Part shown: positions 1-51,005 of the stretch, in pieces
Position numbering within the stretch: position 1 is the stretch's first letter
Layout: every line of letters begins with the position of its first letter
Assembly (NCBI GenBank): GCA_951406725.2
Contig: OX597828.1
Span: forward strand, 806,001 to 870,000
Direction of reading: 5' to 3'
Source of the DNA: Octopus vulgaris
Taxonomy: Eukaryota
DNA: 64,000 nt
Notes under the pieces: generated by a model
What the model saw: the letters and a program-made list of their open reading frames with translations, nothing else
Told to the model about the DNA's origin: nothing
Database searches by the model: none
Made by a program: the position numbers and the translations under genes

Positions 1-1142
1 CTATCACCGACACCCAGGAGAAAAGAATGGTATGATAAGAGGACCATTGTTTACAGGGTGTGCGCAAACGAAAGGAAGAGGGTAGAAGTTGTATCCATGG
101 AATGGATAGAGGAAGCCCTGCGAAGAACTGAGGAGGAAATAAATTTTCTGACTCGAGGATCCAAGTACGGGACCGTAGTTGTGCACTTTAAAAGTGAATC
201 TGCAGCGAGGAAGATGGCAGCGAAGGCGGTGAAGTCGGAAAAGGTAACACTGTTACCTACGTATTTAAACAGGAGGATTACACGAATAAGGGTGGAGGGA
301 GTGCCACCAAACGTGGAGGCAGAATGGATTGTGGCGGCTGTGATCAGCGGCCACGAGGACGAAGTGGATATTCTCCATGCCTCGGTTAAGTCCGAGGGCT
401 GGAGAGGCGTAACAGTGGAGCTGAACGTACAGGCAGAGACCGAGGTACTGGTGGACCTGACGGAAAGCATCAGACTGGGAGAAGTGATCATGAGAGTGTG
501 GGTGGAGGGCAGGGCTCCACGTTGTTACAAGTGTGGCCTGAGGGGTCACATAAGAGCCTTCTGCCCTCCCCCAGGGAAAGAAATGGATCCCGAACCAGAG
601 AGAGAGAAGCAGAAACCAGAGGAGAAGGAAACAGAGGAAGAGAATACACAGAAATGGAAGGAAGCTGGAAGTAAGAGGAAGAGAAGAATATGTGGAAAAA
701 AAGAAAATAATATGGAACTCCAATCTACCCCAAAACCTCCCACACCCTCTGAGTCCCACCCTATCCATGCAGACATTGAACCCACCCGCTCCCCCCCAAC
801 AAGAAAACAAAAGAAAAAAAAGAATACACACACACAAGAGATTGAAATCGAACCCAGGCCGTACATTTGTACTATGACTGAACAGAGGAAGTTAAAAGTC
901 TAATGGAAGAGTATAAACGGTATGATGTTGGAGAGACTAGGTATGCTGTGATTGAAAAGAAGAACATAGGTGAGTTTATGGGGAGGTGTGAAAGGGAGAA
1001 TTGGGAGGTGAAAGATATAAGAATGAGCGATGAATTCGTGGAAAATATGAATGAGTATTTCGGAGTAAGAATGGATATGGAATTTATTCGTATTGGCAAA
1101 GAACATTCAAGTGACTATGAAAAACAAAGGACAGGTAAGTGA
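1..1142 (+). pseudogene. Gag-like ORF1 of copy 1, broken by a 1-bp frameshift near 888
   Basis: ORFs 58-903 and 903-1142 together match the C-terminal 380 aa of ORF 1457-2875. GAACAGAGGAAG here versus GAACAGAAAGAAG in copy 2. Confidence 0.85.
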
Positions 1143-1294
1143 TGCTGACGGACGGGGCCGTTGGTATCGCTTTCATTTTATCATTTTTTTCGTTTAACAC
1201 TTCATGTTCATATAGTTTAATTATAATGTTCTATGTCCCCATGTTTTGTGATGTCCGGCACTCTTCGTAGCCCCTTAGTGGGTAATAAAGAAAT
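1..1294 (+). mobile_element. ORF1-only (HAL1-like) Tx1-type non-autonomous retroelement, copy 1 (5' part outside window)
   Basis: Near-identical to 1733-3027 (offset 1732/1733). Encodes a gag-like ORF1 with CCHC knuckle CYKCGLRGHIRAFC. A short 3' UTR ends GCCCCTTAGTGGGTAATAAAGAAAT. No ORF2. Confidence 0.85.
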
Positions 1295-3027
1295 ACGTTT
1301 TTTTTCGGCTCCTGAAATTCGGTAAAAAAGAACAAAAAGCGTTGTTGTTGTTGTGGAAATTCTGAACGGCGTTGACGCGGTTTCGCGTTTCGCTCGTTCA
1401 GCGCGTTACACTTTTTCTGTTTTGGCGGCCGTTCTCGGTCTGTCAGACAGAAGGAAATGGACTATGAGTCTCTAACAGACTTGTCCACGACAGATGAGGA
1501 ACTGGAACAGGCAATTGCAATGAAGCTGATGGAAGAAAAGGCTGGAATTTTCGAGTCTTTATCAGACCTGCCTACGTCTGAGAAAGAGCTAGAAATGGCA
1601 GCAAGGAATTTGGAAGAGAAGCTGGGTTATACCTATGCCGGTGTAACCAAGAAGGCGGAAGAGAAAGGGGTAGACATGGCCAAGTTGCCAAGTTACCAGA
1701 AATACATGAAAAAGGAAAGCGGTGAGGTGGAACTATCACCGACACCCAGGAGAAAGGAATGGTATGATAAGAGGACCATTATTTACAGGGTGTTCGCAAA
1801 CGAAAGGAAGAGGGTAGAAGTTGTAACCATGGAATGGATAGAGGAGGCCCTGCGAAGAACTGAGGAGGAAATAAATTTTCTGACTCGAGGATCCAAGTAC
1901 GGTACCGTAGTTGTGCATTTCAAAACTGAGTCTGCAGCGAGGAAGATGGCGGCGAAGGCGGTGAAGTCAGAAAAGGTAACCCTATTACCTACGTATTTAA
2001 ACAGGAGGATTACACGAATAAGGGTGGAGGGAGTGCCACCAAACGTGGAGGCAGAATGGATTGTGGCGGCTGTGATCAGCGGCCACGAGGACGAAGTGGA
2101 TATTCTCCATGCCTCGGTTGGGTCCGAGGGCTGGAGGGGCGTGGCGGTGGAGCTGAACGTGCAGGCAGAGACCGAGGTACTGGTGGACCTGACGGAAAGC
2201 ATCAGACTGGGAGACGTGATCATGAGAGTGTGGGTGGAGGGCAGGGCTCCACGTTGTTACAAGTGTGGCCTGAGGGGTCACATAAGAGCCTTCTGCCCTC
2301 CCCCAGGGAAAGAAATGGATTCCGAACCAGAGAGAGAGAAGCAGAAACCAGAGGAGAAGGAAACAGAGGAAGAGAATACACAGAAATGGAAGGAAGCTGG
2401 AAGTAAGAGGAAGAGAAGAATACGTGGAAAAAAAGAAAATAATATGGAACTCCAATCTACCCCAAAACCACCCACACCCTCTGAGTCCCACCCTATCCAT
2501 GCAGACATTGAACCCACCCGCTCCCCCCCAACAAGAAAACAAAAGAAAAAAAAGAATACACACACACAAGAGATTGAAATCGAACCCAGGCCGTACATTT
2601 GTACTATGACTGAACAGAAAGAAGTTAAAAGTCTAATGGAAGAGTATAAATGGTATGATGTTGGAGAGACTAGGTATGCTGTGATTGAAAAGAAGAACAT
2701 AGGTGAGTTTATGGGGAGGTGTGAAAGGGAGAATTGGGAGGTGAAAGATATAAGAATGAGCGATGAATTCGTGGAAAATATGGATGAGTATTTCGGAGTA
2801 AGAATGGATATGGAATTTATTCGTATTGACAAAGAACATTCAAGTGACTATGAAAAACAAAGGACAGGTAAGTGATGCTGACGGACGGGGCCGTTGGTAT
2901 CGCTTTCATTTTATCATTTTTTTCGTTTAACAATTCATTTTCATAAAGTTTAATTATAATGTTCTATGTCCCCATGTTTTGTTATGTCCGCCATTCTTCG
3001 TAGCCCCTTAGTGGGTAATAAAGAAAT
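1295..3027 (+). mobile_element. ORF1-only (HAL1-like) Tx1-type non-autonomous retroelement, copy 2 (complete, about 1.73 kb)
   Basis: About 160-nt CpG-rich 5' UTR with a hairpin at 1362-1401, an intact ORF1, and a 150-nt 3' UTR with the same tail as copy 1. Confidence 0.85.
1457..2875 (+). CDS. Gag-like ORF1 nucleic-acid-binding protein (472 aa; RRM-like region plus CCHC zinc knuckle)
   Basis: Intact ATG-TGA ORF with Cx2Cx4Hx4C. Aligns by eye with the LINE ORF1 at 3262 (RGSKYGTVVVHF vs RGKKYGTVEVRF; VEGRAPRCYKCG vs VEGRKPRCFGCG). Confidence 0.9.
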   Translation: MDYESLTDLSTTDEELEQAIAMKLMEEKAGIFESLSDLPTSEKELEMAARNLEEKLGYTYAGVTKKAEEKGVDMAKLPSYQKYMKKESGEVELSPTPRRKEWYDKRTIIYRVFANERKRVEVVTMEWIEEALRRTEEEINFLTRGSKYGTVVVHFKTESAARKMAAKAVKSEKVTLLPTYLNRRITRIRVEGVPPNVEAEWIVAAVISGHEDEVDILHASVGSEGWRGVAVELNVQAETEVLVDLTESIRLGDVIMRVWVEGRAPRCYKCGLRGHIRAFCPPPGKEMDSEPEREKQKPEEKETEEENTQKWKEAGSKRKRRIRGKKENNMELQSTPKPPTPSESHPIHADIEPTRSPPTRKQKKKKNTHTQEIEIEPRPYICTMTEQKEVKSLMEEYKWYDVGETRYAVIEKKNIGEFMGRCERENWEVKDIRMSDEFVENMDEYFGVRMDMEFIRIDKEHSSDYEKQRTGK

Positions 3028-3261
3028 CACATGGAGGAAATCAATTTTTTGCGTTATTAGTAAGTTGATATATATTTTTGCTCTCATACTACTTATCTCT
3101 GTTATTATATACTGTTGGTCTACCTTTTTTTTTGTCCATTGTTGTCTAACCGACGAAGTCAACCTTCGCGCGAAGACTTCGCGTTGGTGTTCCCCCCTCA
3201 GTGGGGGAAAACTACAATTAATTTAGATCTACCAAAGGCTTGTTAAAGCCATTTGTTCAAG

Positions 3262-4637
3262 ATGGAGTCCCCCATCACTTATTCGCCCGTGACGAGCGAG
3301 GATGAATACCCGGCGTTGTCGCCAAGTAAAAAAGAGGCGTTGTCGCCAAGAAAAAAAGAGGCGCTGTCGCCGAAGAAAAAAGAGGCGGCGTCGCCCAAGA
3401 AAATGGTAAAACCAGTACCAGCATCAACTCCAGCAAAAAAATTCGCTGAAGTGGCTGGGAAGAAAATTAAAAAAATTAACGTGGACAACCTGGGAAAACA
3501 TGCGGACTGTGTGTCAAAAGAGGGCACGGAAGTAACCGTGGCTTCAAACGCCCAAATACAGGAGGATATTTCGAATAGGAGAATAATCTATAAGACATTC
3601 AGTATAACAAACAGAGCAATCCAAAAAATAGAGGAGAAAAAGATTGAAAACTGCTTAAAGCCAATAATGGATAAAATTACGTATATCAATCGAGGGAAGA
3701 AATACGGCACAGTGGAGGTGAGATTCACGTCAGAGGAGGTAGCGAAGAAGCTATCCATGGAACCCATAAAAGCGGAGGATATTGTTCTCCTACCCCTGTA
3801 TAAAGGCAAGAGAACTTCCAAGATCACAATGAACAACATCCCGCCAGAAGCGGATGCCGAAGTCCTAGTGGCAGCAGTTATGGTAGGCCTGGAGGAAAAA
3901 ATAAACATCCTCCAGGCCACCGTAGAAGAAGAAGAATTCTGGAAAGGGCAAAAGATAATAATAGCCATACAAGCAGAAGTACAAACCCTGGAAGAGATCC
4001 CAGAGACTCTAAGGATAAGCGAAGATGAAAGAGTCACAGTCTTCGTAGAGGGCAGAAAGCCGAGGTGCTTCGGCTGCGGTAAGAAGGGGCATGTAAGGGC
4101 GGAATGCCAGCCCCAACCCAAACCGCAGGAAGCACCTAAGCCAAAAGAAAAGAAGACAATGTGTCACCAGAAGCAGCGTCAGACGGCCCAGAAGGGAAGA
4201 CTGAAGGTGTGGAGGTGATGGTAACAGCAGAACCAGCGGCGGAGAAAAAAAGAGCGAGGAAAAGATAAATGAGGAGGGGTGGGCAAAAATTATCGGAAAA
4301 AAAAAAGAAAAACGGAAACCACCCCTCCCAGAGTAATTTTAAAAAAGAAAAAAGAGTCAATGAACTCATATATGGCCGTAAAAGCATCAAATAGCAGACT
4401 CGGAAACGTGTTGGCAGCCATGGCCAAAGTGAAGAAAGTAGAGAAAAAAATGACTTTGTAATTTACAAAATAGACCGGAAGGATTACGGGCGGATAAAGT
4501 CAGAATTCTTCCATGACGTAGGCCCACTTAGGTTGGATGTAACATCTCCACATATATTCGAGGGCCTACGTCAGACTCCCCCACGAGGCCCAGAAAAAGA
4601 GAAGGAAGAAGAAGAAAAAACCGAACCACTGATATAA
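3262..4637 (+). pseudogene. LINE ORF1 (gag-like, CCHC), frameshifted in A-runs after about 4150
   Basis: ATG at 3262 and knuckle CFGCGKKGHVRAEC. Coding-like sequence continues in shifted frames (EDNVSPEAASDG..., MNSYMAVK..., DFVIYKIDRKDYG...) to a stop just before ORF2. Confidence 0.75.
3313..3400 (+). repeat. 24-bp tandem repeat encoding ALSPxKKE (about 3.5 copies)
   Basis: GCGTTGTCGCCAAGWAAAAAAGAG units giving ALSPSKKE ALSPRKKE ALSPKKKE AASPKK. Confidence 0.85.
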
Positions 4638-4646
4638 AGGTAAGTA

Positions 4647-7600
4647 ATGGATTACATTTATGTTGGTTGTTTAAATGTGCGCGGCCTGGGAGCAGGCTGG
4701 AAGCAAGGTCGCTTCCTGCATGATATCAGGTCGCGTAATTTAGATGTTATTGTTGCTACAGAAACCCGGTTAGAGGGGCCAAGAGGTCTACTCCCGCTGT
4801 TTGACGGCTACGAGAGTTTTTTCTCTCCTGGCAGTCCTACAGGCGGGAGTGGGGTGTTGGTCCTATTAAAAAGAAACCGGGTTTCTGAGAAAAAGTTAAT
4901 TTTTGCAGATCCAGAAGGTAGGCTGGTCGTCATGGATTTGACGTTCAGTAATGGTAAAGTTATCAGACTGGTTGCAATTTACGCACCCAACCATACAGGG
5001 CAAAGTGATTATTTTCGTGAACTAGAAAACTTTCTTGGTACTTCGCATTCATTAGTGGTGCTAGGAGACTTTAACACAATTTGCAAAGCGGATGTAGATT
5101 ATGTTGGCTCGTGTCCAGATAGAAAAGGCAACAGTGGCTTCATGGAACTGCTAAGCCGCTTTGAGCTAGCAGATCCTTATAGGCTGGAATTTCCGAACGC
5201 TCCATTGTGGACATGGTCAAACAGCGACGGATCTTCCAGGTCGTATCTAGATAGAATACTAATTAGAAAAGTAGACAGTAAAATAGCTAAGTGTCCACAG
5301 TTTTACCCGATCAGCTACAGTGATCATAAAATGGTCACTTGTAAGCTTGACATAGATAAGGTTAAAAATAGAGGATCCGGTTACTGGAAACTTAATACGT
5401 CCCTTTTGGCGATTAAGGAGTACAAAGACCGGATTAGGAATATAATTCAGAGGGCACTATCTGGTACCATCATTAATAACAAATGGTGGTACGCCCTCAA
5501 ACGAGCCATCAAGTTTGAGTCTATTAGATATAGCATAGGAGTAGTGGCTAGAGAGGCTAGAAGGGAAACTACTCTAGTTAAGGAATTAGAGGAAGCCATG
5601 AAAACTGGCTCTGCGGCTCAGGTGGCGGCCAAGAGACTGGTGTTAAACCAGCACCTCGAGGCCAAACACATGGGCTGCATTGTCAGGGCTAGAATCCGTC
5701 ATATGGGATGTGAAGGAATCAACGCCGTGAGATGGGCCCGAGTGGTGGAAGCTCAGCATGGTAACGATGCCACGATTCGATCTTTGACGAACCAACAAGG
5801 TGAGTTGATAAACGAACCCGAGGAGATGTGTGAGGCCTTTCAGGAGCACTTCGCTCAGCTTTTCGATGAGTGCGGCGGACTGGATAGGAGGAGGGCCTTT
5901 ACGGACCTACTCGACGGTCTGCCGCGCTTATCGGGGCGAGATGCGGAGGGCTGTGAAGGGCCAATCACGCCTGAGGAGGTGGTTGAGGCAATGGCGGACT
6001 GCGGTGCGGGCAAGGCGCCGGGTTTGGATGGTCTACCCTATGAGTTATATAAGAGTATGCCAGACTTGTTCGGGCACCTACTGGCGGAGGTCTACGCGAA
6101 CTGGCAGCAGAACGGGCTTATACCCAGATCTGTGCGCCGGGGAGTAGTGACTCTCGTCAGAAAGGACCCGAGCAAGGGGGAGTGCATTGATAATTTCAGG
6201 CCCATCACTCTGCTAAACACAGAGTTGAAGATTTTGGCCAAAGTGTTATCGAAAAGATTGGCGCGTGTCGCGGATGGTCTGATCGGAGGGGCACAGACAT
6301 GTGCCGTTCCGGGCAGATCCATTCAGGATAATCTCCATCTAATGCGGTACACTATAGAGGGGTTTAATAGTGATTCTGGCAAGGGTGGGGCACTGGTCCA
6401 TTTAGACCAATCTAAAGCTTTTGATAGGGTCGACCATCGTTACCTGGTATCTGCCCTGGCACAGTTCGGGCTGAGCCTTGGATTCCTCAGGTGGATTATC
6501 GAAATTTATGATAACATCGACTCGGTAGTTCGGGTGAACGGCTTCTTGTCGAAGCCGTTCAAAATCAAACGCTCGGTTCGTCAAGGGTGTCCGCTCTCCC
6601 CGCTTTTGTACGTGATGGCTCTTGAGCCATTACTGCGAAAACTGAGCGGCATCCCGAGACAGCCAGGTAATGGAAAATCAGTGTCAGCGTACGCGGATGA
6701 CATCACCATCATCGTAACCGAAATGGACCACCTATGTAAAGTAGGCAAGGCCATAGAGGTGTACGAGACGGTGACAGGAGCAAAAGTTAATCGCGAAAAG
6801 TCAGTCGGCTTGCAACTCGGCACCTGGAGAGGCAAGTCGATGCCTCCTGACAGCGTCGTGGGACGTTGGACGGAGGGTCCGATTAAACTGCTAGGGGTCT
6901 GGTTCGGTCCAGACCTCCAAATAGAGAAGAATTGGGGCGAGGTAACGAGCAAGGTGGCTGCAGTAGCCAAGACCTGGTCTTGGCGGTGGCTATCCCTGAA
7001 AGGGAGGGCGGAGGTGGCCAATGTGTTTATCGCATCGGTTATCACCTACCGCCTTTCCGTCGTTCCTTGCCCTGATTCGTGGTTGATCAAATTGGAAAGA
7101 CAGCTCTTCTACTTCTTGTGGAAGGGCGGGAAACCACTTGTGAAACGCTCTACTTGCTGTCAACAACCGTTAAAGGGTGGGCTAGGGATGCCTTGGCTGA
7201 TGATGCGCAGACATGCGCTGAGGTTAAGACATCTGTGGCTCTACCTGGATGGTGAACGGGTGTGGTCTTCGCTAGCAAAACTGATGTTTCCCAAGTTCAC
7301 TAGTTTCGGTGGATGGGAAACCTGGCTGAATCGTAGATCGAAACTTGGTACTTGGTACACGGAGTGTCGCAAGGCTCTCCTGCTATTCCGTCGCTCGGGC
7401 AACGCCTGCGGTGGGGGTTCCACCACTTTCTTCTATAGAGGGTTGGTAGAGGCGGAATGTGAAGATACCTTGGGGGAAACCCTAGGTCTCGACGATAATC
7501 AGCTGGCCAGTCTGTTCCGACGTACGTTCGAGCCAAGGACACTGGACAACTTCCAGAAGTCTCTGGCATGGCAATGCTACAGAGGAGCTCTACCTGTTCG

Positions 7601-8042
7601 GGATAAACTCGCAAGGCACGGTGGCCAAGACAGTCCGATATGCCCAAGATGCGGGCGGGATAGGGAAACCGTCCCGCACGCGATTGTTCATTGTCCGGAC
7701 GTGTCTGAGGTGTGGGTTTATGCCGAACACCTGTTGTCAGGTACACGAAGAGTACAGCTGTCGACTGAGTCGATTACAAAAATTGACCCACCGGATTTCC
7801 TCGTGAATGAAGGTAAGTTTCGTTTTCTCGTTGTAGTAGCAATCGCGAAAGAGGTGATATGGAAGACGAGAATGAAAGGTTTACAGTCAGGCAAGTTCAT
7901 CTCCGGCCCTGGTTTGATGAATTATTTCATCTTTCACCTGAAAAGGAAGATAGGGCTGGAGAGAATATGCCTGACTAGGAGAGCGTATGAAGAACGATGG
8001 AAGGATGTAGCACGGAAGTTGCGAATGAAAGTTACAACATAA
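4647..8042 (+). CDS. LINE ORF2: APE endonuclease, reverse transcriptase and C-terminal CCHC (1131 aa, intact)
   Basis: APE motifs NVRGL, ETRL, IYAPN, GDFN, LDRIL, SDH. RT motifs KAPGLDGLP, FRPITLLN, LDQSKAFDRV, RQGCPLSP, YADD. C-terminal CPRC..ETVPHAIVHC. Confidence 0.96.
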   Translation: MDYIYVGCLNVRGLGAGWKQGRFLHDIRSRNLDVIVATETRLEGPRGLLPLFDGYESFFSPGSPTGGSGVLVLLKRNRVSEKKLIFADPEGRLVVMDLTFSNGKVIRLVAIYAPNHTGQSDYFRELENFLGTSHSLVVLGDFNTICKADVDYVGSCPDRKGNSGFMELLSRFELADPYRLEFPNAPLWTWSNSDGSSRSYLDRILIRKVDSKIAKCPQFYPISYSDHKMVTCKLDIDKVKNRGSGYWKLNTSLLAIKEYKDRIRNIIQRALSGTIINNKWWYALKRAIKFESIRYSIGVVAREARRETTLVKELEEAMKTGSAAQVAAKRLVLNQHLEAKHMGCIVRARIRHMGCEGINAVRWARVVEAQHGNDATIRSLTNQQGELINEPEEMCEAFQEHFAQLFDECGGLDRRRAFTDLLDGLPRLSGRDAEGCEGPITPEEVVEAMADCGAGKAPGLDGLPYELYKSMPDLFGHLLAEVYANWQQNGLIPRSVRRGVVTLVRKDPSKGECIDNFRPITLLNTELKILAKVLSKRLARVADGLIGGAQTCAVPGRSIQDNLHLMRYTIEGFNSDSGKGGALVHLDQSKAFDRVDHRYLVSALAQFGLSLGFLRWIIEIYDNIDSVVRVNGFLSKPFKIKRSVRQGCPLSPLLYVMALEPLLRKLSGIPRQPGNGKSVSAYADDITIIVTEMDHLCKVGKAIEVYETVTGAKVNREKSVGLQLGTWRGKSMPPDSVVGRWTEGPIKLLGVWFGPDLQIEKNWGEVTSKVAAVAKTWSWRWLSLKGRAEVANVFIASVITYRLSVVPCPDSWLIKLERQLFYFLWKGGKPLVKRSTCCQQPLKGGLGMPWLMMRRHALRLRHLWLYLDGERVWSSLAKLMFPKFTSFGGWETWLNRRSKLGTWYTECRKALLLFRRSGNACGGGSTTFFYRGLVEAECEDTLGETLGLDDNQLASLFRRTFEPRTLDNFQKSLAWQCYRGALPVRDKLARHGGQDSPICPRCGRDRETVPHAIVHCPDVSEVWVYAEHLLSGTRRVQLSTESITKIDPPDFLVNEGKFRFLVVVAIAKEVIWKTRMKGLQSGKFISGPGLMNYFIFHLKRKIGLERICLTRRAYEERWKDVARKLRMKVTT

Positions 8043-8290
8043 ATGTAATACCAAGTGCAACCAAAAGTATCAGTGGGGAGGCGGGGCTCGTGGGGTCCGA
8101 GCTAAACCCGCACCCACTCCACCCGTAATGTCTTCCGGTCTGTCCTATCACTCGATTTCTGTCCATTTATTGTTATTCATGAAAATTTTTAAACCCGATT
8201 TATTGTAAAAACCCATTCGTTTGTCTGACCCCATCATCAGATTGTATTGTCCCATCTGTGTTCGCCCCTTGTGGGTAATAATAAAACAAC

Positions 8291-8620
8291 ATGGAGGAAA
8301 GCACCTTCTAAAAGTGTCTTGGTGCGACTATGAAAGGTATCTAATCAGAGGCGGTAAATTCGTCACATTAGAAGCAAGGTTCGAGTCAACGGAGCGTGCA
8401 AGGGAGTACTCGACTCGAACTTGCAAAGTGGAAATATTTTATTTTTACCTTTATATCTGGGACGTAGGACGTCCCGGAAAAAAATTTTAAATCCACCCCA
8501 CCCCTCACCCCCAGAAGTAGAGGTATGCTGGATTGTAGCTACACTTCTATACAAGAGGGCGGACAAGATACAATTGATCGAAATTACAAGAGACGGGCTA
8601 ACAATTCCAGTCTGTTATAT
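8291..8620 (+). pseudogene. Decayed ORF1 fragment of a third related Tx1-type family (insertion target of the LINE)
   Basis: Across frames it reads MEESTF*KCLGATMKGI / RGGKFVTLEARFESTERAREYS / ILFLPLYLGRRTSR..PPEVEVCWIVATL, colinear with both ORF1 proteins. Confidence 0.75.
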
Positions 8621-8799
8621 ATTTTGAGTATTGTTATCACTAGCGATATCAAGGTATAACTTTGTATTTTGTATTTTATGTGTAGATGTATATATATAGA
8701 TGTACATGTAATATGTACACATATATATACACATATATACATGCACTAGCACTATGAACCGGCAATGACGGTTCTTTAATACTAGTATGATATAAAGAA

Positions 8800-9190
8800 T
8801 TAAATTCGTAAAATAAAAACTGAAATATTCAAATTTGAAATACTAAATTTGAAATATTAAATTAGAAATACTAAATATGAAACATTTAATTAGAAATATC
8901 AATTTCGAAAAACGAAATATTAATTTAAAGCCTTAAATATAGGATTTTGTATATGAAATATTAAATCTCAAATATCACATTTTTCAAATTAACTACTTAA
9001 TTTGAAAAATGTCATATGACGAATGAAATTTAAAATGCAAAATTTGAAATATTAATAAAATAATATACTTGAAATATTAATATAAATTATGAAATATTAG
9101 CTCAATAAAATATAAAATATTGTTTCAATGTATTAAAAAAATATGAAATAAATTCGTGATAACAAATATCAATTAAAACTAATTAAATAC
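8800..9190. repeat. Degenerate AT-rich minisatellite (about 15-bp AAATTTGAAATATTA-like units)
   Basis: Recurring GAAATATT/AAATTT motifs. Confidence 0.55.
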
Positions 9191-9212
9191 CAACAATACG
9201 TCATTTTGCTAG

Positions 9213-9396
9213 AAAAGAATTCATCTACGGTTCTTGTGACAGTATGGCCTATATCCGAAAATTCTCCACCAGAACTGATCAAATGTTACTACAGAATACA
9301 CTTCAGGGACACGGGGGTGATGTTGTGGCATGTAAATGGAATCCCTTCATTAACAAATGGATTACAGCTGCGGAAGATGGAATCATCAGAATTTGG
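9213..9396 (+). CDS. WD40-repeat protein, internal exon A
   Basis: Acceptor ttttgctAG and donor GTaaaa. Encodes KEFIYGSCDSMAYIRKF...LQGHGGDVVACKWNPFINKWITAAEDGIIRIW, a GH...W WD repeat. Ends in phase 0. Confidence 0.88.
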
Positions 9397-9512
9397 GTAA
9401 AACTTTTTTCTTCGTTTCACGGTTTTTTAAATTGACTTGTGTGTGTGTGTTGCGTGTGTTTGTGCGTGTGTGTGTGCGTGCGTGCGTGCGTGTGTGTTTG
9501 TGTGTGTGTGTA

Positions 9513-9548
<36 letters not shown>

Positions 9549-10849
9549 ATATTGTGTATTATTGAGTTTTGTTTTCTGAATAAGATTATTCTCGATCTAA
9601 ACGTCAACGGTTCTTTTTGCTCCCGGAGCTTCAGACAGTCACCTTGCGCAAGACATTGATTCTCGCTGCTCTAGTCCACCTTACTAAGTATTGATGGAAT
9701 GAAGTTTACTTTTGAAAAGACAGAAATACTCGACTTCTGTATCCATAGATAACATTATCCATATCATTATCTAGAGATATTTTACTTTATTTTCTACATT
9801 CCGATAACTCACAAACCGGACGTCTCATTTCTCTTTGAAACCCAAATTTGTAATATTTTTCTCTGACACATCTATGTTGTCTAGGCTTCATCCTACACGC
9901 AAAATTTATCTTGAAAGGCGATTTTTTTCACTTATAAAGAACCTAATTCCTTGCTTACAACTAAACAAAACAACGTTGAAGCTTTGAAACAAGAAAATGA
10001 ATCCTTTGAGGACTTTAATGTGAAAAACTTGTCTTAGCTTTTTCATGGCGCCCAAACCAACACTGGCATAGCAGAAAGCGAATAATTTGCCAACCATATT
10101 AAACTGTACGCACCAGTTAGTTATCTGTATTACTCACAATTAGGCTAACGCAAAGTCACTCAGTTATCTTCCTTGCTATATCCATCTGAATGCTTCACAC
10201 AACCAAAGTCCTCCGTCGCACAAACCGTCAAATGGTTCGTTTGCAACTATACAAACATTTTTGGACACAACTTCAGACTGTCTGGGCGCATCCCCCACCA
10301 CCACACATACACATTGTAAAATTCATGGAGATTGGGGTTTTAGGTATTTTACAATAAATATGTCTCTCCTAATCAACAAATCGTCATTTGAGTCTCCCAA
10401 TCAACAATGGTACCTTGTTATTCCTAAAATTGCTATACGCGAATAATAGTAAAAATTGAGGACAAGACATTAAGGCACTTAAAAATAAGTATATATGGCA
10501 GGCAATTAAGGGATTAAATATAGGCATTTAAGGCACTAAAATAAGCATTTATACCACCAACAAATGTGGATTTAAACAAGTAAACGTAGCATTTATAAGG
10601 AACGTAGGTGTTTGTGGCACTAAAAATTAGTATTGTGTAACGAAGAGGAAGTACTGCATAACAAGATATGCTGATGGGATCGTAAATATAGTCATGAAGT
10701 GAGGGTTAAGCCTGTTTATTATTCAGTAGAAAGTGTTTATAACTCAAGTAATAAAATGAAATTAGTCAAAATGAAAATATTTATTACAACGTAAAATATG
10801 GTAACATAATTTTGCATTATTTGATTAATGGAATTTATAATCCATATGA

Positions 10850-11765
10850 AACAGAAAAGTTTTAATAAGCAAATATATAGATAGAAAAGAGAACACGCTT
10901 TCTAAAAATAAAACTTTAAGAACTTTTGCAATATCATTAATCTGTTGTCGGCTAGTATTGGCATCAATCACTTTTTGGCACTTTTTAGCTATGTGTCTGC
11001 CCCTCTCTCCGAGAGTACTCCTTACCTTTTCAACTGTGCTGTTAAACAAAGATAGAGCTCAGATTTTCTAAAGCTAATATAGTTTGTGGTAGTGTTTTAA
11101 AATGTGCAACAATAAAGAAGCGATCGCCATGAACACCGGAGTTACGAATCAAATCTTGGACAATACGTGTAGAAGAAGCTTAACGGTATCAACATTTGAG
11201 GAATAATATGCAGCAGCGATTATCCGCGTTCCCCATCTTGTGAGAATGGGTTACGGAGGTAAACTCAGTGTTGGTGCATGCTCGCAGAAAAGTTCACACT
11301 TACATGGAGATTTAAGAAATATATTTTTACCATTTTGCAATCAACCTGTCAGCATCTGGAAATTGTAAGCGTACTTCTTCGGAAATTCTATGCAATCCAT
11401 ATATTAAACATGTTACATGGATCATGCGACGAAGCAGTGTCTTTTTCATAAAAGATACAGCATCTGTCACAAATAGTAAGACATTGTCATACTTGAAACC
11501 ATCAGTCCATGGTAATGCTAAAGAAGAAGTGAATAGATGAGTGATAGAACTATTAATAGCAGTAAGAAATTCTGGTGTTAATAAATGCATATTAGGGCTA
11601 TCGGACTTTTCTAAAGTACCTACAATAACATTCACAAGGTACCTTCCCAACAAGTCAGTGGTTTCATCTATCGAAATTCAAATTCCAAGCAGCGATTATC
11701 CACATCCCCATCTTGTGAGAAGGGATTGCGGAGGTAAACTCAGTGTTGGTGCATATTCGCGAGAG
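10850..11765 (-). mobile_element. Decayed hAT-like (DUF659-type) DNA transposase fragment
   Basis: GRYLVNVIVG, VLLFVTDA, MIHVTCLIYGLHRISEEVR and LPP*PILTRWGT motifs with stops. A segment of about 75 bp (11212-11285) is duplicated at 11688-11760. Confidence 0.7.
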
Positions 11766-12294
11766 TGTGGTGTGTATATACTTAACTAGCTGAAAAGCCG
11801 CCCAACAGGGCAGCTTTTAAACTAGCTCCTGTGGAGAGCTCCTCATTAGGTCTTGGGACCCAACATGACACTTCATGCATTGAGTATATATTAAATTTTA
11901 TTAAATTTGAACAATATTTTTCAAGTAATGAACAATTTTCATCAAAACAATAATATAATTTGTCGACTTAGAATTTATTGCAAAGCTGTATGATAAACAA
12001 CAGTACCACCACCATCACCACCGCATCTGCAATCCACACACCATTCAGACTTTTGACGCCACTACCACCAATACATTTGACTTTGCCGCCTTTCCTTCCA
12101 TCACCACCACTGCTGTCTTTCACATCGCTTACTCTCATCGTTATTCCTGACCACAACTACCATCATCACCGCCGCCTCCACATCTATCACATATACAGCT
12201 CATGCTATTACTATCACCCCATTACCATCACAAAAAGGCTAAATGTGTTTGCAAAAGAATTCAATGTTCAGTATGTTTCTCAGTATGTTATATA

Positions 12295-13700: not shown

Positions 13701-15047
13701 CTTAGAATAACTTAGAAAGGTTTTAGCCAGTATTGGCCCAGGCTATGTCTAACTTAATAGCACCACCTGGTGAAGTTTTTCAATTCAGGATTTGGGCACC
13801 AAGGCCCATTCGAGCAGAGAGTTATTGTTTGCGGAGACATATCCGGGTGTGGGTGGTTTGTCCGGGACTGTTTGAAGGAATTTGTCCAAAATCTTCTTGA
13901 ATTTTGTGTAGTCAGTTTCTGTTTTGACGTGTCTTGGTGTAATGTTGAAGAGGGCGGGTCCAATTGAGGTGAAATAATTGTGCAGTAATGTTGTTATGAG
14001 ATGCGATTGAGATTTTTGTTGTGGACGGATGGCACGGGGTCCGAGTCTTGGATGTATTTTGAAGGTGATACCAACATCATTTGGACAGTGCTGATGGAAT
14101 ATTTTCCACATCATACAGATGATGTAGCGTTCACGGCGTGAATACAGTTTCAGCTTTTCCAGTCGATCCCAGTAGTCAAGGTCTGACATGCCATCTATCT
14201 TTTTCGTGATTGACCTTTGGGGAGCTTCAACTTTCATAATATTTTGTTTTGTGTAGGGAGACCACAGTGGACAGCAGTATTCAAGGTGGGGTCGGGCAAA
14301 AGTAGAGAAGAGAAGGATAATAGTGTGGGAATCTCTCGACTGGAAAGTTCTGAGAATCCAGGAACACATTCTGCGGGCCATGTCAACTTTGCTGCTTATA
14401 TGTGTAGCCCAGCTTATGTTGTTGTCCACAGTTACTCCCAGGTCTCTGATGTTGTTAGACGCCATGAGAGTTTCACCAGAAGGAAGGGAGTATGGGAGTT
14501 TCAGAGCGTCCTCCCTTCCAAAGTGGATCAATTCGAATTTGTCTTCGTTTAGCAACATGTTGTTCTTTTCCGCCCATTGGACAACAGCCAGTAGGTCTGA
14601 CTGAAGGTTTATTCGGTCATCCACGCCATTGATGACCTTCTGGAGCTTGGAATCATCAGCTAAGATTCTGATGTTACTATATTTGATGATGTCAGTGATG
14701 TCATTAATGTAGATGATGAAGAGAAGTGGGCCCAACACAGTGCCTTGTGGGACACCACTACTGACTTTGGCTGGGCTGGATTTGACTCCTTCGACTACAA
14801 CATGTTGGGTTCTGTTAGACAGGAAGCACTTGATCCACTGCAGTAGCTTTCCAGTGACACCAATATTGGACAGCTTTCTCAAAAGGATCTTATGATCAAC
14901 CCTGTCAAAGGCCTTGCTGAAATCAAGGTAGATAACATCAGTGTTGGAACCCTCTCCCAAGGCTCTCAAAATGTCATAGAAGTGATACAGTAGCTGCGTC
15001 AGACAATCCCTTCCATTACGGAATCCATGCTGGTTGGAGTTCAGCAT
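13700..15047 (-). mobile_element. 5'-truncated CR1-group LINE (RT C-terminal part and 3' tail)
   Basis: QHGFR, YLDFSKAFDRV, SGVPQGTVLGPLLF, ADD, RPHLEYC..WSP. The tail ends in TTCTAAGTTA repeats. Confidence 0.85.
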
Positions 15048-31621: not shown

Positions 31622-34600
31622 TCAACAGCCTATCTTTGAAGCTGTAAGGTTATCGTTCTCAGGAAGTACCGGGTCTTTCATCCAGTCAATTAATCCTTTC
31701 ACACTGACAATGTATACATCGGACAATTCCTCAACCAGTCCCAGGAAAGCGTTTAAACCTTTGAGGTTTTCTTCGTTGTTCGGTAAAAACCAGTCCGATC
31801 GTAAGCGAACACCAAAAGGCGTTCGATCTCTTTTGTAAAATGCCATGAAATTACTTAGAAGGAGATCATAGGTTTGCACCGCAGTCTGGGGTTTGTTATA
31901 GCAACTGTCAACAAATTTACACAAATACCTTTTCTTAATTCCAACATAAGGAACAGCAGGGACTTCCCAGAGACCCTTAAATTTTTTAGTAGGACACTGT
32001 TGTAGCAAGCAGTTTTTCTTCCATCCAAAGTCTAAGGTAGACGGCCAAATTCCTGTCCTATTCTCTAAATTTGTCATTACAAACAGTGACGAATCATACA
32101 GCATCTTACTATTTTGCAAATTTTCAAATTGAACGTCTCCTTTCGATTGAAGATCAATATTTCTCCAGCCAAATATTTTGTCATGAGATACATTAGCATA
32201 TCGGTTAAGCAAATATTTTTGCAAAGCAATTTCCATATTTAAAAGATTACCGGCCAGATTCTTCTTTTTTAACCCATGTAATGCAATTTCCATTCCTTCG
32301 TCGTAAAGCTCTTTAATAGCGGTATAATTAGATCCTTCGGATGTGACAAATAAGGTGCTTTTAATCCGGCAACCATTTGCATTTAACCTTTCGGCATGAA
32401 AAAGCCCTTTAAGTTTTTCAGTAATAGAAGAATTGATAGATCCTTCGTAAGTGAAATAAACGAATTGAGGAATTTTCTTCGATGTTGTTGGGATATGGAA
32501 TTGGTGACATTGACAACCTGGTTTATAGCAGTTCTTCCCTTGTTGACAGGATTCCGAAACTGATACATTGCTGTCGTCATTTGATTTCGAAGGACTGCTG
32601 TTGCTGCTACTACTATTACTAAGTTCCAAATGTTCATCCAGTGGGTCTGACGAAAATTCTCGAGATTTCACAAAGCCTGGTAATAAAGCGGATTTTGTAT
32701 ATCTACTTGTAAGAATATTTCGCTGACCTACACTTTTATTTTTATATCTGTTATTAATATTTATTCCAGTAGTAAAATCCAAGAAAGTTTTTCTTAAATC
32801 AGAGTATTTTGTTTTTAAATATTGTCCCCTTTCTAATGGAAGAATTTCGGCCTTTTTAGATAAAATAGCTTCTTTTTTCGGTGAAAGTATTTTAACTGTT
32901 TCTGATGATGGAATTTCTAATTTTTCAAATGGACGAATTTTGGTTATTTTAGATTTCAATAAATTTCTCATTGTTGTCATCGGTTTCACGTTTAACTCCT
33001 TCAAACCGTTTTCATAGTCCAACTTCTGCTGTCTGTTGTGGATTAATATTACCGGCTCACGGTAATCCTTGTTTGTAAGAAGTTGCCTGTCTATCGAATT
33101 ATTCTTTGCAACTAATATCACAGCGCTATCGTGGTTAGACGAATCTTTCGTAATTATCTTCTCTAGCTCCTTATCATTTTTCATTACCAGGCTGGCCGCT
33201 ACTCGGAATAAGTTTGATTTTCTATGAAAAACACTTTGAAGTGAATGTCTACTAGTGTCAATATTACTTTGGTCATTTTCATTTCTATTGTGTATGTTCA
33301 TGTTAGAATTGCTTTGAATAGGTAAGCTTCTTGTCTTCTTGATATCTGAATTTTCCTCGGCTGCGCTTCTCTCAGAAAAAACTTCAGGGAATTCGAATTT
33401 GTCTCTTTTATCACTTTTCAGTGACCGTTTATGGAGAATATTAGTTGGTACAGAATCAGAGGTCTGATAGGAAGTTCTCAACGTCACAGAAGACTCATTC
33501 AGTGGAGTCAGTGTCGTCTGAGAAATATTTTGTAATTTATTTCGACTGGCTGTATTCGAAGGTGACAGTGTCGAGTGAATTAATTCTCTTGTTGAATTGA
33601 AACTATTACCGATAGGCTGGGTTTGAGATGGTGTTGACTGAAAATTATATCCTTCCGTTACAAAATTATTAGAAACTTGTTGGGTTTGCAGCGATTGTAA
33701 CCTTGCGCTCGGGCCATTGTTATTGTTCCCTTCCATGTTTTGTGACATCATCACGTTTGTAGTGATTTCTCCCATCAAGACTGTTGTTGCTAGTTTCGTT
33801 GACGAAATCGTTTCTACAGAAACTATGGTTTGGTTTGGGAAACTGGAATATTGGTTTATGGAACTGGTGGTTTGATTTGGGAAACTGGAAGATTGGTTTA
33901 TGGAACTGGTGGTTTGATTTGGGAAACTGGAATATTGGTTTATGGAACTGGTGGTTTGATTTGGGAAACTGGAAGATTGGTTTGTGGAACTGGTGGTTTG
34001 ATTTGGGAAACTGGAAGATTGGTTTGTGGAACTGGTGGTTTGATTTGGGAAACTGGAATATTGGTTTATGGAACTGGTGGTTTGATTTGGGAAACTGGAA
34101 GATTGGTTTGTGGAACTGGTGGTTTGATTTGGGAAACTGGAATATTGGTTTATGGAACTGGTGGTTTGATTTGGGAAACTAGAAGATTGGTTTGTGGAAC
34201 TGGTGGTTTGATTTGGGAAACTGGAAGATTGGTTTGTGGAACTGGTGGTTTGATTTGGGAAACTGGAATATTGGTTTATGGAACTGGTGGTTTGATTTGG
34301 GAAACTGGAAGATTGGTTTATGGAACTGGTGGTTTGATTTGGGAAACTGGAAGATTGGTTTGTGGAACTGGTGGTTTGATTTGGGAAACTGGAATATTGG
34401 TTTATGGAACTGGTGGTTTGATTTGGGAAACTGGAAGATTGGTTTATGGAACTGGTGGTTTGATTTGGGAAACTGGAATATTGGCTTATGGAACTGGTGG
34501 TTTGATTTGGGGAGTTGTTTGTTTGTTTTGGCGAAATGGTGGTTCCGTTTAGGTAACCGTTGGTTTGGTTCTGACATTGAAACGGAGCAAATTTGGACAA

Positions 34601-35602
34601 CTCATTTAACGATGGTTGGTGCTTCATCCATTCCACAATCTGTTTAATATTAACAACATAAACGTCATTGAGGCCGAGGATATAGTCTAAAAATCGATGC
34701 ATGGCTTTCATTCGGTATGGGTTCGTCTCATATTCTTGCAACAACCATGTTGAATGCATGTTCAAGCCAAGTGGTGCCTTGTTCATAGTGTAGTAACTCA
34801 TGAAATTTTCCAGCAAGAAATTGAATGATTCTTCTTCGTTTGTTGGTGAATTCGCACATCCGTCCACATAGACGCAAGGATAACGAGCCAGTTTGTCAAG
34901 CACTGTCACGATAGGTACTTCCCAGAATCCTTGAATATTTTCGGTCGGACATTCGGGAATGCTGCAAGGATATGGCCAACCATAATCCATCGTAAATGGA
35001 ACTGGGGATTCTTCAATCAGTGACCTTTTGGTGATAGTCAAAGTTGAATCGTAGGCAAAACCTGCCTTACTCAGTATTTCAAACTGTTCGTTTCCGTAAG
35101 CTATTAAATACGGACTTCTGAATCCGACAATTTCTTCTTTGGGTATCTGCGATCGATTGGCAAGGTTTAACCGTTGACCGAGTGCTTCGTATGAAAACTG
35201 AAGAGCATTCAGTGATCTTATATGATTGATGCCATGCACTGCTATATCCATTCCTTGGTCATAGAACTGCTTCACCAAGTCGTAATCGGTATCGTTATGC
35301 GACACGAACAAAGTCATCGAAATTGGGCACTTATTTGGATTTGTGCGGCTTTTATTGAATAATTCTTCATAAAGAGGAGAATTTCGAACTGTCACTGCAT
35401 CGTCGAACGAGAAGTAAACCAACTGAGGCCTTTGTGACTTTTTACCGGGGATTGTATGGCCACAGCAGGAGCAGTTTGGCAGAGTGCAGTGACCCGTTGT
35501 TCTACATTTATTGCATTCGTTTGGTGTAGTGCGTATGTTGGCGAGGACGATAGAAGCAGAAAAGATTGCCAATGACAAAACGAAAAAGAATGGGAAGTTC
35601 AT
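31622..35602 (-). CDS. Secreted tandem chitin/polysaccharide deacetylase-like protein (CE4): intact domain, Ser/Thr/Asn repeat, degenerate second domain; 1326 aa in one uninterrupted ORF
   Basis: Hydrophobic N-terminus. Domain 1 has SFDD, HGINH, GFRSPY, YDST, WEVP and PLGLNMH. Domain 2 has TYEG, HGLKK, GWRNID, YDSS, WEVP and PFGVRLR. Confidence 0.92.
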   Translation of the reverse strand: MNFPFFFVLSLAIFSASIVLANIRTTPNECNKCRTTGHCTLPNCSCCGHTIPGKKSQRPQLVYFSFDDAVTVRNSPLYEELFNKSRTNPNKCPISMTLFVSHNDTDYDLVKQFYDQGMDIAVHGINHIRSLNALQFSYEALGQRLNLANRSQIPKEEIVGFRSPYLIAYGNEQFEILSKAGFAYDSTLTITKRSLIEESPVPFTMDYGWPYPCSIPECPTENIQGFWEVPIVTVLDKLARYPCVYVDGCANSPTNEEESFNFLLENFMSYYTMNKAPLGLNMHSTWLLQEYETNPYRMKAMHRFLDYILGLNDVYVVNIKQIVEWMKHQPSLNELSKFAPFQCQNQTNGYLNGTTISPKQTNNSPNQTTSSISQYSSFPNQTTSSINQSSSFPNQTTSSINQYSSFPNQTTSSTNQSSSFPNQTTSSINQSSSFPNQTTSSINQYSSFPNQTTSSTNQSSSFPNQTTSSTNQSSSFPNQTTSSINQYSSFPNQTTSSTNQSSSFPNQTTSSINQYSSFPNQTTSSTNQSSSFPNQTTSSTNQSSSFPNQTTSSINQYSSFPNQTTSSINQSSSFPNQTTSSINQYSSFPNQTIVSVETISSTKLATTVLMGEITTNVMMSQNMEGNNNNGPSARLQSLQTQQVSNNFVTEGYNFQSTPSQTQPIGNSFNSTRELIHSTLSPSNTASRNKLQNISQTTLTPLNESSVTLRTSYQTSDSVPTNILHKRSLKSDKRDKFEFPEVFSERSAAEENSDIKKTRSLPIQSNSNMNIHNRNENDQSNIDTSRHSLQSVFHRKSNLFRVAASLVMKNDKELEKIITKDSSNHDSAVILVAKNNSIDRQLLTNKDYREPVILIHNRQQKLDYENGLKELNVKPMTTMRNLLKSKITKIRPFEKLEIPSSETVKILSPKKEAILSKKAEILPLERGQYLKTKYSDLRKTFLDFTTGININNRYKNKSVGQRNILTSRYTKSALLPGFVKSREFSSDPLDEHLELSNSSSSNSSPSKSNDDSNVSVSESCQQGKNCYKPGCQCHQFHIPTTSKKIPQFVYFTYEGSINSSITEKLKGLFHAERLNANGCRIKSTLFVTSEGSNYTAIKELYDEGMEIALHGLKKKNLAGNLLNMEIALQKYLLNRYANVSHDKIFGWRNIDLQSKGDVQFENLQNSKMLYDSSLFVMTNLENRTGIWPSTLDFGWKKNCLLQQCPTKKFKGLWEVPAVPYVGIKKRYLCKFVDSCYNKPQTAVQTYDLLLSNFMAFYKRDRTPFGVRLRSDWFLPNNEENLKGLNAFLGLVEELSDVYIVSVKGLIDWMKDPVLPENDNLTASKIGC
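33835..34510 (-). repeat. Coding minisatellite, 16 x 42 bp, encoding PNQTTSS(I/T)NQ(S/Y)SSF
   Basis: Direct reading; 21-bp sub-period. Confidence 0.95.
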
Positions 35603-48789: not shown

Positions 48790-51005
48790 TGATTGATTTT
48801 GATTTTGATTTTTCCAGTTTCAGCTAATGAGCTGTGGCCATGCTGGGGCACCGCCATTTGGTTTGCTACATGATTTTACCTCACGAATGCTTTTTAGCAA
48901 CTGCCATTTGGTGCATGAGAGAGTTCGATGCAGCTGCCCTCATCTGCACCTCCTGCCGTGAAGTTGGTTCATCCGGGACACCTGACAGGAAGAGATCCAG
49001 TCCTACTTTAAAGACATCCGCATCTACACCATGCAGGTCCCTCAGGTTCTTCGGGAGGATATTGAAGAGCTGTGGGCCTCTGAAGCCCAGGCTATCACAG
49101 TATCTTGTCCTACATCTTGATGGCAAATTTGGAGTCCTTGGTACTACGCAGTGGCGCCCGGTTCTGGCATTTGTGTGACTCTCGATGCCAAAGTTTGGGA
49201 CAAGTCCTTCCAGGATCTTCCAGATATATATTATGGCATATCTTTCTCGCCTACGCTCCAGGGAATAGAGCTTTAATCTCTTGAGTCTTTCCCAGTAGCT
49301 TATATGCTACACAGAGGCTATCTTCTTCGTGTAGCTTCGTTGGATCGCCTCAAGTTCTGTGATCAACTTGACACTGGATGGTGACCATAGCTGAGAGCAA
49401 TAGTCAAAGTGGCTTAGGACAAGTGTCTTCCAGAGGACCATCATGGTTTCTTGTTCTCTTGTTCTAAAGGTTCTAAGAATCCATCCGGCCAGCCGTCTAC
49501 ATTTCATTGCCAGTTTAGCAACATGTACATGAAAGGTCGCGTCATCACTCATGTGAATATCCAAGTCACGCACTGATTGTGCCTCTGGGATTGCAATTCC
49601 TCCGGGTCCAGTGTATTCATTGGGTATTGCATTCAGTTTTGCATGCTGATAGCATAAAGCTTGAAACTTTTCAGCATTGAACTGCATGCTATTCTTTTCG
49701 GCCCACTTGTATATTTTGTCCAGCTCACATTGCAGGTGCTTAGTGTCTTCAGGGTTCTGTATTGCCTGTGAAACTTTTGTATCATCTGCATAACTTGTGA
49801 TCGTGGCTCTCTGCGTGGCTGAGGGCATGTCTGAGAGGGCCATTATGAACAGTAGTGGTCCCAAAACAGTGCCCTGCGGAACACCGCTCACTATTTGCGT
49901 GTTAATGGAAGTGGCTGCTACCACCTGACTTCTATTCTTCAGAAAGTCATGAAGCCATTCTCCAAATTTTCCAACTATGCCAAGATCACGCAGTTTGTGA
50001 CATATCATTCCATGATCGACTTTATCAAAGGCCTTTGCAAAGTCGAGATATATGACTTCCACATTTGAGTGGTTGAGCAGTCGTTTCAGCACCCAGTCAT
50101 AGTGTTGTAGGAGCTGAGTTAAGCAGCTTCTTCCTGGTCGGAAACCATGTTGGGTGTCAGGCAGCAAGTCATTTTCTTCAAGGAAGGTGATTAGTTTCCT
50201 TCTGACTATTCGTTCCATGACCTTGCTGATGTGTGAGGTGAGAGAGATAGGTCTGTACTTCTTGGCCTCCGCTCTGCTACCTCCTTTATGAATAGGGCAT
50301 ATTTTACCTTCCTTCAGTTTTCTTGGAAGTTTGCCAGTTGCAAGGAAGCTCTGAAAGAGAGACCGCAGTGGTCTTGCTAGGACTCTCTTACATACTTTTA
50401 GAAGGATTGCTGGGAATCCATCGGGGCCAGTAGCTGAGTTTGTTTTCATCTCATCTATAGCCTTTATTACATCGTCTTCCTTTATATTGATGTAATCAAT
50501 CATCGCCGCCTCTGACCCCATATCTGCAGTGGTGAAGAAGTCAGTTGGATTGCTGATTTGGAAATGCCCAAGGGGTGGGGTGAAAACACTCTTGAATTGC
50601 TCATTTAGTATTACACTTACCCCCATTGGATTTCTTGTGAGTGTGCCATCATTTTCAAGGAGTGGCCCTATCCTACAGTGCACCGTAGCTGTTTCTGTGG
50701 CATACCTGTAGAAAGCTCTGGGGTTAGATTTTATGTTGTCTATAGCCCAGGCTTCTTTGTCTGCTCTTTCCTTTTCATGGGAGAGTTGCAGACAGTTTTC
50801 AATTTCCAACAGTTTCATTTTCAGGCGGGACTTTTCAGTGCTTTCAATTTGTTTGTTTAGGCGATTTGAGATTTTTGTGCGCCGTCTCATTAGAATTTTC
50901 CTCTCTCTGGGGATTTTGTTCTTGTGTATAGTGGCCTTTCTCTCTGGGACACATTTGTAGCATATGGCTTACATTACAGACATGAATTGTTGAAGTTTCA
51001 TGTCG
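48790..51005 (-). mobile_element. 5'-truncated CR1-group LINE (RT domain) with 3' tail
   Basis: GPDG, YRPISLTS, QHGFRPGRSC, YLDFAKAFDKV, SGVPQGTVLGPLLF and YADD. The tail ends in AAAATC repeats. Confidence 0.9.

Follow-up and report, generated by a model that had tools for sequence, protein, structure and literature searches.

Why should a long interspersed nuclear element (LINE), a type of retrotransposon treated as intronless, carry a perfect 5' splice site at the end of its first open reading frame (ORF)? The question is raised by a stretch of 64,000 nucleotides from Octopus vulgaris (contig OX597828.1, positions 806,001 to 870,000, forward strand; herein called the window), whose first 8.6 kb are filled by a nest of retrotransposons that lack long terminal repeats (non-LTR retrotransposons) in surroundings rich in AT and microsatellites. 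Two families of this nest, named A and B, share the sequence AGGTAAGTRATG, which occurs at 1133, 2866, and 4638 and on the plus strand only (0.04 copies expected; three were reached in 0 of 100 shuffles). The consensus 5' splice site is matched at nine of nine positions in A, B, and a distant family D. Judged by sequence comparison, the donor at the ORF1 stop is a real, clade-wide feature that was earlier misread as a stop-start signal. The donors exist, they are kept across families that are 39-40% identical in ORF2, and the copies keep the sequence behind them. Their function is likely related to U1, and the data lean toward a role of bound U1 small nuclear ribonucleoprotein (snRNP) on unspliced RNA.

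Splice donors in the octopus elements

The nest consists of two tandem copies of A, one copy of B, and a repeat, C, into which they are inserted.

1..1294, +: A1, an ORF1-only element; 5' end outside the window, ORF1 frameshifted near 890-903
1296..3027, +: A2, a complete ORF1-only (HAL1-like) element, head-to-tail behind A1
1457..2875, +: ORF1 of A2, 472 amino acids, zinc knuckle (zf-CCHC, E 0.08, below the cut-off), C terminus QRTGK-TGA
3029..3040, +: left copy of the 12-bp target-site duplication of B, ACATGGAGGAAA; the empty site is seen in loose ends of contigs
3041..8288, +: B, a full-length two-ORF L1/Tx1-like LINE without poly(A) tail (ORF, domain, and structure matches)
3262..4637, +: ORF1 of B, frameshifted in this copy; the C-terminal frame stops with TAA at 4635-4637 (frames and sister proteins)
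4647..8042, +: ORF2 of B, intact, 1131 amino acids, with apurinic/apyrimidinic (AP) endonuclease, reverse transcriptase (RT), and zf-RVT (Pfam domains)
8289..8588, +: C, a decayed ORF1-like high-copy repeat with the shared insertion site, starting with the right copy of the target-site duplication (tblastn E 3e-5 to ORF1 of A)

The donors and donor-like sites are as follows; a slash marks the splice point.

1132..1140, +: A1 donor CAG/GTAAGT (1134/1135)
2865..2873, +: A2 donor CAG/GTAAGT (2867/2868), nine of nine positions matching, overlapping the last ORF1 codons
4637..4645, +: B donor AAG/GTAAGT (4639/4640), in the 9-nt spacer from ORF1 stop to ORF2 ATG; a contig of run X8 departs behind 4639
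1319..1327, +: weak donor-like TCG/GTAAAA in the 5' untranslated region (UTR) of A, resembling TCG/GTAAGA of D 5' UTRs
3057..3065, +: donor-like TTA/GTAAGT in the 5' UTR of B
5797..5805, +: AAG/GTGAGT within ORF2 of B, which may be incidental
7810..7818, +: AAG/GTAAGT in B, ~230 nt ahead of the ORF2 stop; not kept in the aligned sister protein P0012, which has EGQ here

The initial annotation had counted three copies of the motif. All three are present, but A1 and A2 are one duplicated element (97% identity between 1-1294 and 1733-3027), so that the independent cases number two. The TGA of the motif is the ORF1 stop in A2, as had been proposed; in A1, the frameshifted ORF1 stops at 903, and the TGA at 1140 thus lies outside the open frame as assembled. 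The ATG of the third copy was rightly taken as the ORF2 start of B, from which the frame runs 4647..8042, and the ATG behind the donor in A opens 23 codons only. Three of the B sites (3057-3065, 5797-5805, and 7810-7818) extend the earlier list. The claim that the two families are otherwise unalignable is borne out as well: A and B DNA shows no alignment except over the last ~38 bases, and their ORF1 proteins are 35% identical.

B has the layout of an L1-group LINE of the AP endonuclease (APE) type, namely ORF1 followed by an ORF2 with N-terminal AP endonuclease, RT, and a C-terminal zinc-binding region. The best PDB match of its ORF2 is human L1 ORF2p (E 9e-65, residues 3-867), with R2 far weaker. 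A is HAL1-like in encoding ORF1 only, in its partner-like 3' end, and in its independent insertions. Predicted O. vulgaris proteins match at 90-97%, and one O. sinensis protein at 96%.

Conservation in related families

Families D and E were found by an ORF2-alignment scan, as tandem arrays in eukaryotic host DNA that had been binned into a public bacterial metagenome-assembled genome (CAXXMW); the flanks of these arrays are rich in AT and microsatellites. Their ORF2 is 38-40% identical to that of B, and the DNA of B and D can be aligned only in short RT patches, not at the ORF1/ORF2 junction. An RT tree of 107 sequences places B, P0012-P0014, D, and E in one clade (local support 0.996). Curated Tx1 and L1 references are absent from this clade; P0035 alone is named TX1-like, by similarity. 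The clade members P0012, P0013, P0014, and P0015 were compared as proteins only, and ORF1 alignments were too diverged for use as search profiles.

In D, the ORF1 stop TAA is followed by G/GTAAGT (AAG/GTAAGT) in 58 of 58 junctions, one of them with an extra A. Among outgroup L1/Tx1-like loci, G/GTRAGT occurs near the ORF1 stop in 1 of 56 junctions and near the ORF2 stop in 0 of 36. Fisher tests of clade versus outgroup give P values of 5e-4 (ORF1-stop site) and 4e-3 (ORF2-stop site), both post hoc and on families related by descent. These counts exclude 9 of 65 outgroup junctions with an ORF1 below 180 codons and 29 without a full ORF2 end, as well as 2 of 62 D/E loci without an ORF2 start and three more without a 3' UTR; one artefact group was dropped from the 5' UTR survey. 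The reading of the motif as a 5' splice site is strengthened by this retention at the ORF1 stop of a distant family, by its near absence from the outgroup, and by one probable RNA contig that leaves B at 4639/4640. Conservation across all related families, which the initial annotation had proposed to check, was found in part: D keeps the donor throughout, but the junction donor is missing in E, and the spacing to the ATG is not kept in D.

Further donors lie at the other ORF ends. D carries GTRAGT 14-17 nt after the ORF2 stop; in subfamilies whose upstream stop has been lost, GTRAGT itself supplies the stop. E carries CAG/GTAAGT 38 nt past its ORF2 stop. GTRAGT is found near the ORF2 stop in all 57 D/E 3' UTRs reached, with G at position -1 in 50 and with exchange of GTAAGT and GTGAGT. 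In 5' UTRs, GTAAG(T/A) is seen 50-130 nt into the UTR in 15 of 15 D ORF1 groups, across two dissimilar UTR types; the sequence is GTAAGT at 3060 in B, a weaker site stands at 1322 in A, and E has none. Where a boundary site is missing, G/GTAAGT lies within 230 nt inside ORF2 (at 7813 in B, 210 nt after the ATG in E); a donor in that place is harmless for U1 binding and damaging if spliced. Four representative units contain 10 sense G/GTRAGT versus 2.8 expected and 0 antisense, a count that includes the sites that prompted the test. The 65 outgroup loci contain 29 sense versus 50.8 expected and 59 antisense versus 30.5 expected, and hence are depleted of sense-strand donors.

The initial annotation had coupled the splice site to a SART1-like stop-start signal, in which ORF1 stop and ORF2 start overlap. 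In A and B, the donor is indeed followed by TRATG, and a true TAATG overlap exists in E; the latter, however, comes without a junction donor (two of two junctions). In B, the last 63 codons of ORF1 are open only in the ORF2 frame and end in EKTEPLI-TAA at 4635-4637, and sister ORF1 proteins align to this ORF2-frame end with the same endpoint (P0006, ...QAKLLI; P0010, ...AKLPI). The TAA of TAATG (4645-4647) is thus not the ORF1 stop, and the order is stop, AG, GTAAGT, A, ATG. Two in-frame stops precede ORF2, as they likewise do in human L1 (PMC5860796). In D, 14 nt separate the ORF1 stop from the ORF2 ATG, which lies 7 nt after GTAAGT, and A has no ORF2 to be coupled. The UAAUG overlap described for SART1 (PMC3894237) has a counterpart in the TAATG/TGATG of A and B, but this is not the ORF1 stop in B and is absent in D. 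By the reading frames, stop-start coupling is already contradicted for B and D, and as the conserved function of the motif it is very improbable.

Searches for more members of the clade gave no match with B ORF2 in metagenome contigs, none with P0014 in genome contigs, and no clade match in viral contigs; the alignment scan (43 of 64 parts) held none from the clade among the 80 of 378 matches kept. As to the material itself, the bacterial bin (G001, contigs C3-C19) holds ~60 eukaryotic LINE copies in tandem arrays, in which ORF1 and the 5' UTR diverge much faster than ORF2. In the 5' UTRs of L082-L086, L106, and L111, the donor TCG/GTAAGA sits in a long inverted repeat that could mask it.

U1 binding, splicing, and other explanations

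Whether the donors are spliced was approached with four runs mapped as contigs on 1295-8600, of which X1, X8, and X12 are guessed to be RNA and X2 DNA; joints were listed for 15 of 71 and loose ends for 24 of 857. One X8 contig departs B exactly behind 4639 and goes on with at least 255 other letters. At 4636 it has a depth of 219, where adjacent B contigs have 8-9, and a piece of ~120-126 nt would agree with the bin depth. Searched against the window, the continuation gave no match, so that the contig seems to represent a piece of B taken up as an exon by another, host transcript. Use of the B donor by the spliceosome is hence suggested by one contig, from one run and without strand. Contigs bridge, unspliced, the A donor in X8 (2574-3040, depth 135, on into C) and X12 (2755-2999, depth 59), in both of which A continues into its target, and the B donor in X1 (3554-4884, depth 29). 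Among the 15 joints listed of the 71, from RNA and DNA runs alike, none begins at 2867, 4639, or 7812. Since contigs drop rare forms, the absence of splice joints is weak evidence. Octopus gene models join host sequence at the donor of A in 17 of 23 occurrences; these are predictions and were not counted as donor use.

Acceptor candidates exist in all four families. In A, the best one is the following.

2981..3003, +: A acceptor candidate ending TTCTTCGTAG, which would close a 136-nt intron; not above chance (shuffle P 0.52)

Against shuffled UTRs, the best acceptors reach P values of 0.52 (A), 0.60 (B), 0.36 (D), and 0.03 (E), so that only E stands above shuffle, and B has no AG at the position of A's acceptor. 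Each of the 55 D 3' UTRs has a pyrimidine tract with TAG, and the E 3' UTR has TACTAAC with TTTCGTTTTTAG. A further acceptor ~190 nt into ORF2 in B, D, and E lies in Phe/Ser codons, has no donor in E, and is a lead only. D/E loci contain no intronless junctions, compared with 130 unspliced 3' UTR donor matches in overlapping loci, and a spliced ORF1-to-3' UTR junction has no exact match in G001, where near matches stay at control level.

Our tentative explanation, to which we give somewhat less than an even chance, is that the donors at the ORF ends of this L1/Tx1-like clade act as U1 snRNP sites that mostly stay unspliced and would shield full-length RNA against premature cleavage and termination. 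A model is provided by EVD, a Ty1/Copia element of Arabidopsis, in which the donor that closes Gag yields a Gag-only RNA, U1 also keeps termination from occurring too early, and full-length RNA dominates (PMC5580714). Protection of RNA from Restrictor-mediated termination by a 5' splice site has been described as well (PMC12211998). The present families resemble EVD in their strong and conserved donors, their weak acceptors, and RNA that is mainly unspliced, and by this analogy U1 binding mostly without splicing would be favoured. In both systems, the structural ORF has at its end a strong 5' splice site that is conserved. EVD, however, belongs to the LTR elements, its splicing is proven, and a terminator lies nearby (PMC5580714), whereas the elements considered here, known from sequence, are LINEs with donors in both UTRs too and no conserved nearby terminator. 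In the proposed mechanism, the 5' UTR donor would aid early elongation. The donor at the ORF1 end would carry transcription into ORF2 and, when occasionally spliced, would give an ORF1-only RNA with its stop intact. Near the end of ORF2, the donor would make the terminal poly(A) signal less effective, leading to read-through, untailed templates, and head-to-tail arrays, with the unspliced RNA as insertion template. A would likely derive from a B-like ancestor by loss of ORF2, with one donor kept.

Alternatively, the sites may bound working introns, with splicing as their main job: an intron in each UTR and ORF2 as an alternative intron whose removal yields an ORF1-only mRNA, only the unspliced RNA being competent for insertion. 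A donor less than ~50 nt past a stop codon escapes nonsense-mediated decay. Donors that follow the ORF1 stop by 1-2 nt (B, D) and the ORF2 stop by 14-38 nt (D, E) leave the ORFs whole and stay within this limit, and the pyrimidine tracts of D, the E 3' UTR, and the X8 contig leaving at 4639 (depth ~210 versus ~8 unspliced) point the same way. Yet the best acceptors do not rise above shuffle in A, B, and D, the listed joints contain none from a donor to its own acceptor, and the X8 contig runs into sequence absent from the window, as in capture by a host transcript. No intronless copies were found either, though spliced A RNA would regenerate the 3' stem-loop. On balance, we consider this alternative unlikely. 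A wider, retrovirus-like RNA programme combines both ideas: with introns in both UTRs and ORF2 as alternative intron, spliced RNA would serve ORF1 protein, and U1-bound unspliced RNA, reading through the 3' end, would be the sole template, giving rise to untailed head-to-tail arrays and ORF1-only families. We regard it as possible, if unlikely. An incidental U1 match within a binding site kept for a DNA- or RNA-binding protein is improbable. The human L1 5' UTR donor, kept since it lies within a RUNX3 site, offers a precedent (PMC5860796), but the variation seen here follows the U1 consensus (GTAAGT or GTGAGT; C or A at -3), and the motif recurs strand-specifically in three non-coding segments. 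Chance, or an inert relic of a common ancestor, is quite improbable: stop codons supply part of GTRAG, the outgroup family L033/L034 has the same site where the similar L031 has none, and E lacks the junction donor, but 10 identical bases stand at a junction where B and D DNA is otherwise unalignable, and the outgroups are depleted of sense donors.

Several observations weigh against the preferred U1 explanation. Behind the D junction donor, no AATAAA or ATTAAA follows for ~3.9 kb, so that suppression of a poly(A) signal alone does not explain that donor. E, although it has neither a junction donor nor one in the 5' UTR, is intact and arrayed, and upstream of two AATAAA within its ORF1 there is no GTAAGT. 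The AATAAA of A and B lies too close to where the element ends for cleavage of the normal kind, and it may be no signal at all. Donors within 40 nt after the stops in B, D, and E fit real introns better. All D and E data come from one bin, which leaves four families related by descent and post hoc tests, and the contigs have the limits given above, namely guessed RNA status, no strand, loss of rare forms, and a partial list of joints and loose ends. Of the two RNA-level roles put forward in the initial annotation, splicing to an ORF1-only message and U1 blocking of the terminal AATAAA, neither is demonstrated.

Much of the setting is already known: ORF1-only derivatives, repeat-targeting Tx1 elements, L1 splice sites, intron-keeping Penelope elements, and spliced antisense TART RNA. 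HAL1 is likewise an ORF1-only L1 derivative (PMC5753468); A also shares its 3' end with an autonomous partner but differs in being an octopus element with a zinc-knuckle ORF1, a shared specific target, and a retained donor. Tx1L and Tx1-Mar are APE-RT LINEs that insert at one site in another repeat, in tandem, with target duplication or truncation; here the target is the decayed ORF1 of a relative, and splice donors are not among the Tx1 features described there (PMC4494074). Human L1, with its splice sites and SpIREs, has functional donors, but its splicing leads to dead-end intronless copies and its donor is kept for the RUNX3 site (PMC5860796), whereas the perfect donors of the present elements lie at ORF boundaries and intronless copies were not found. 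Penelope-like elements have spliceosomal signals and keep introns but belong to another RT lineage with a GIY-YIG nuclease (PMC3846280), as opposed to an APE LINE with sense-strand donors. TART, too, has spliceosomal signals, with introns in antisense RNA (PMC1636488). A repeat annotation of O. vulgaris from 2026 counts 13 L1-Tx1 families with recent activity, and its main text contains no occurrence of intron, splic, or ORF1 (PMC13282606). In the literature covered, no LINE was found whose ORF ends carry conserved sense donors; Repbase entries, which may already describe these families, lie outside that coverage. If so used, a clade keeping perfect donors at ORF ends would be a LINE that employs U1 or splicing in its own cycle, converging on the Copia strategy. 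It would give a testable account of how untailed elements insert in tandem and how ORF1-only elements arise, and it predicts exon capture into host genes.

3' ends, insertion site, and surroundings

The 3' ends of A and B are marked by a related structure.

3003..3022, +: 3'-terminal stem-loop GCCC-CTTAGT-GGGT with AATAAA in A, common to B; a related hairpin occurs in D and E
8264..8285, +: 3' stem-loop GCCC-CTTGT-GGGT with AATAAA in B (sequence comparison)

The AATAAA expected downstream of the A donor is present 149 nt after it, at 3017, and the absence of poly(A) was confirmed, none following A1, A2, or B. In both families, it ends ~3-5 nt before the element end and may belong to a (TAA)n-like tail; D has untailed ends ~10-17 bases past AATAAA. 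Elements without poly(A) that form tandem arrays would fit read-through, which is no proof of it. A and B share one 3' insertion point, a sequence-specific target as is typical of Tx1-type elements, with a 12-bp target-site duplication for B. The empty site before 8289 is seen in runs X1, X12, and X2 (three of four runs, among the loose ends listed), A alone occupies the same site in C (joint 3040>8333 in X8 and X12), and head-to-tail joints of A occur in the DNA run X2 (3025>1323 and 3027>1308). D arrays have no fixed flank at the two 3' ends viewed. In the ORF1 region of B, contigs of X1 and X8 differ by four gaps each. An Rfam scan of 1-12000 gave no match at gathering score, so that no small nuclear RNA (snRNA) target is indicated.

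Repeat C (8289-8600), the decayed ORF1 relative targeted by both A and B, has the highest summed depth in three of four runs. The terminal hairpin loop reads CT(N)GT (3003-3016 and 8264-8276; 3' ends of L092 and L120), with stems that differ between octopus and D/E, and is likely an RT-recognition signal. A location of this signal inside a 3' intron was considered and rejected, since the acceptor candidates precede the terminal stem-loop. TG(T/A)CCC recurs in the 3' UTRs of all four families, and two matches of a 3'-end pattern search were bacterial and due to chance. Within the arrays, L205:12465-20000 holds three tandem D copies cut at the same ORF2 position with a 3.1-kb period, pointing to array expansion after one truncation. 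The 3' flank behind one outgroup LINE (L050) contains a stretch that we take to be loosely like the 5' end of U1 snRNA. In gene models (P0001, P0002; window 2571-2867), the donor of A is linked to an acceptor that lies in the following tandem copy, which yields a repeat of 99 codons without a stop; the same joint would also close an in-frame circle of 297 nt.

Outside the nest, a host WD40-like exon lies on the plus strand at 9307-9396 (Pfam WD40 E 4e-4, below the cut-off), so that the A/B nest may sit sense-oriented in a host intron. On the minus strand, the window contains an uninterrupted ORF of 1326 amino acids with a polysaccharide deacetylase domain (31622-35602), an ORF of 840 amino acids with no Pfam match (55838-58360), and two further RT-bearing ORFs that are distant from B (13785-15047 and 49307-50890).

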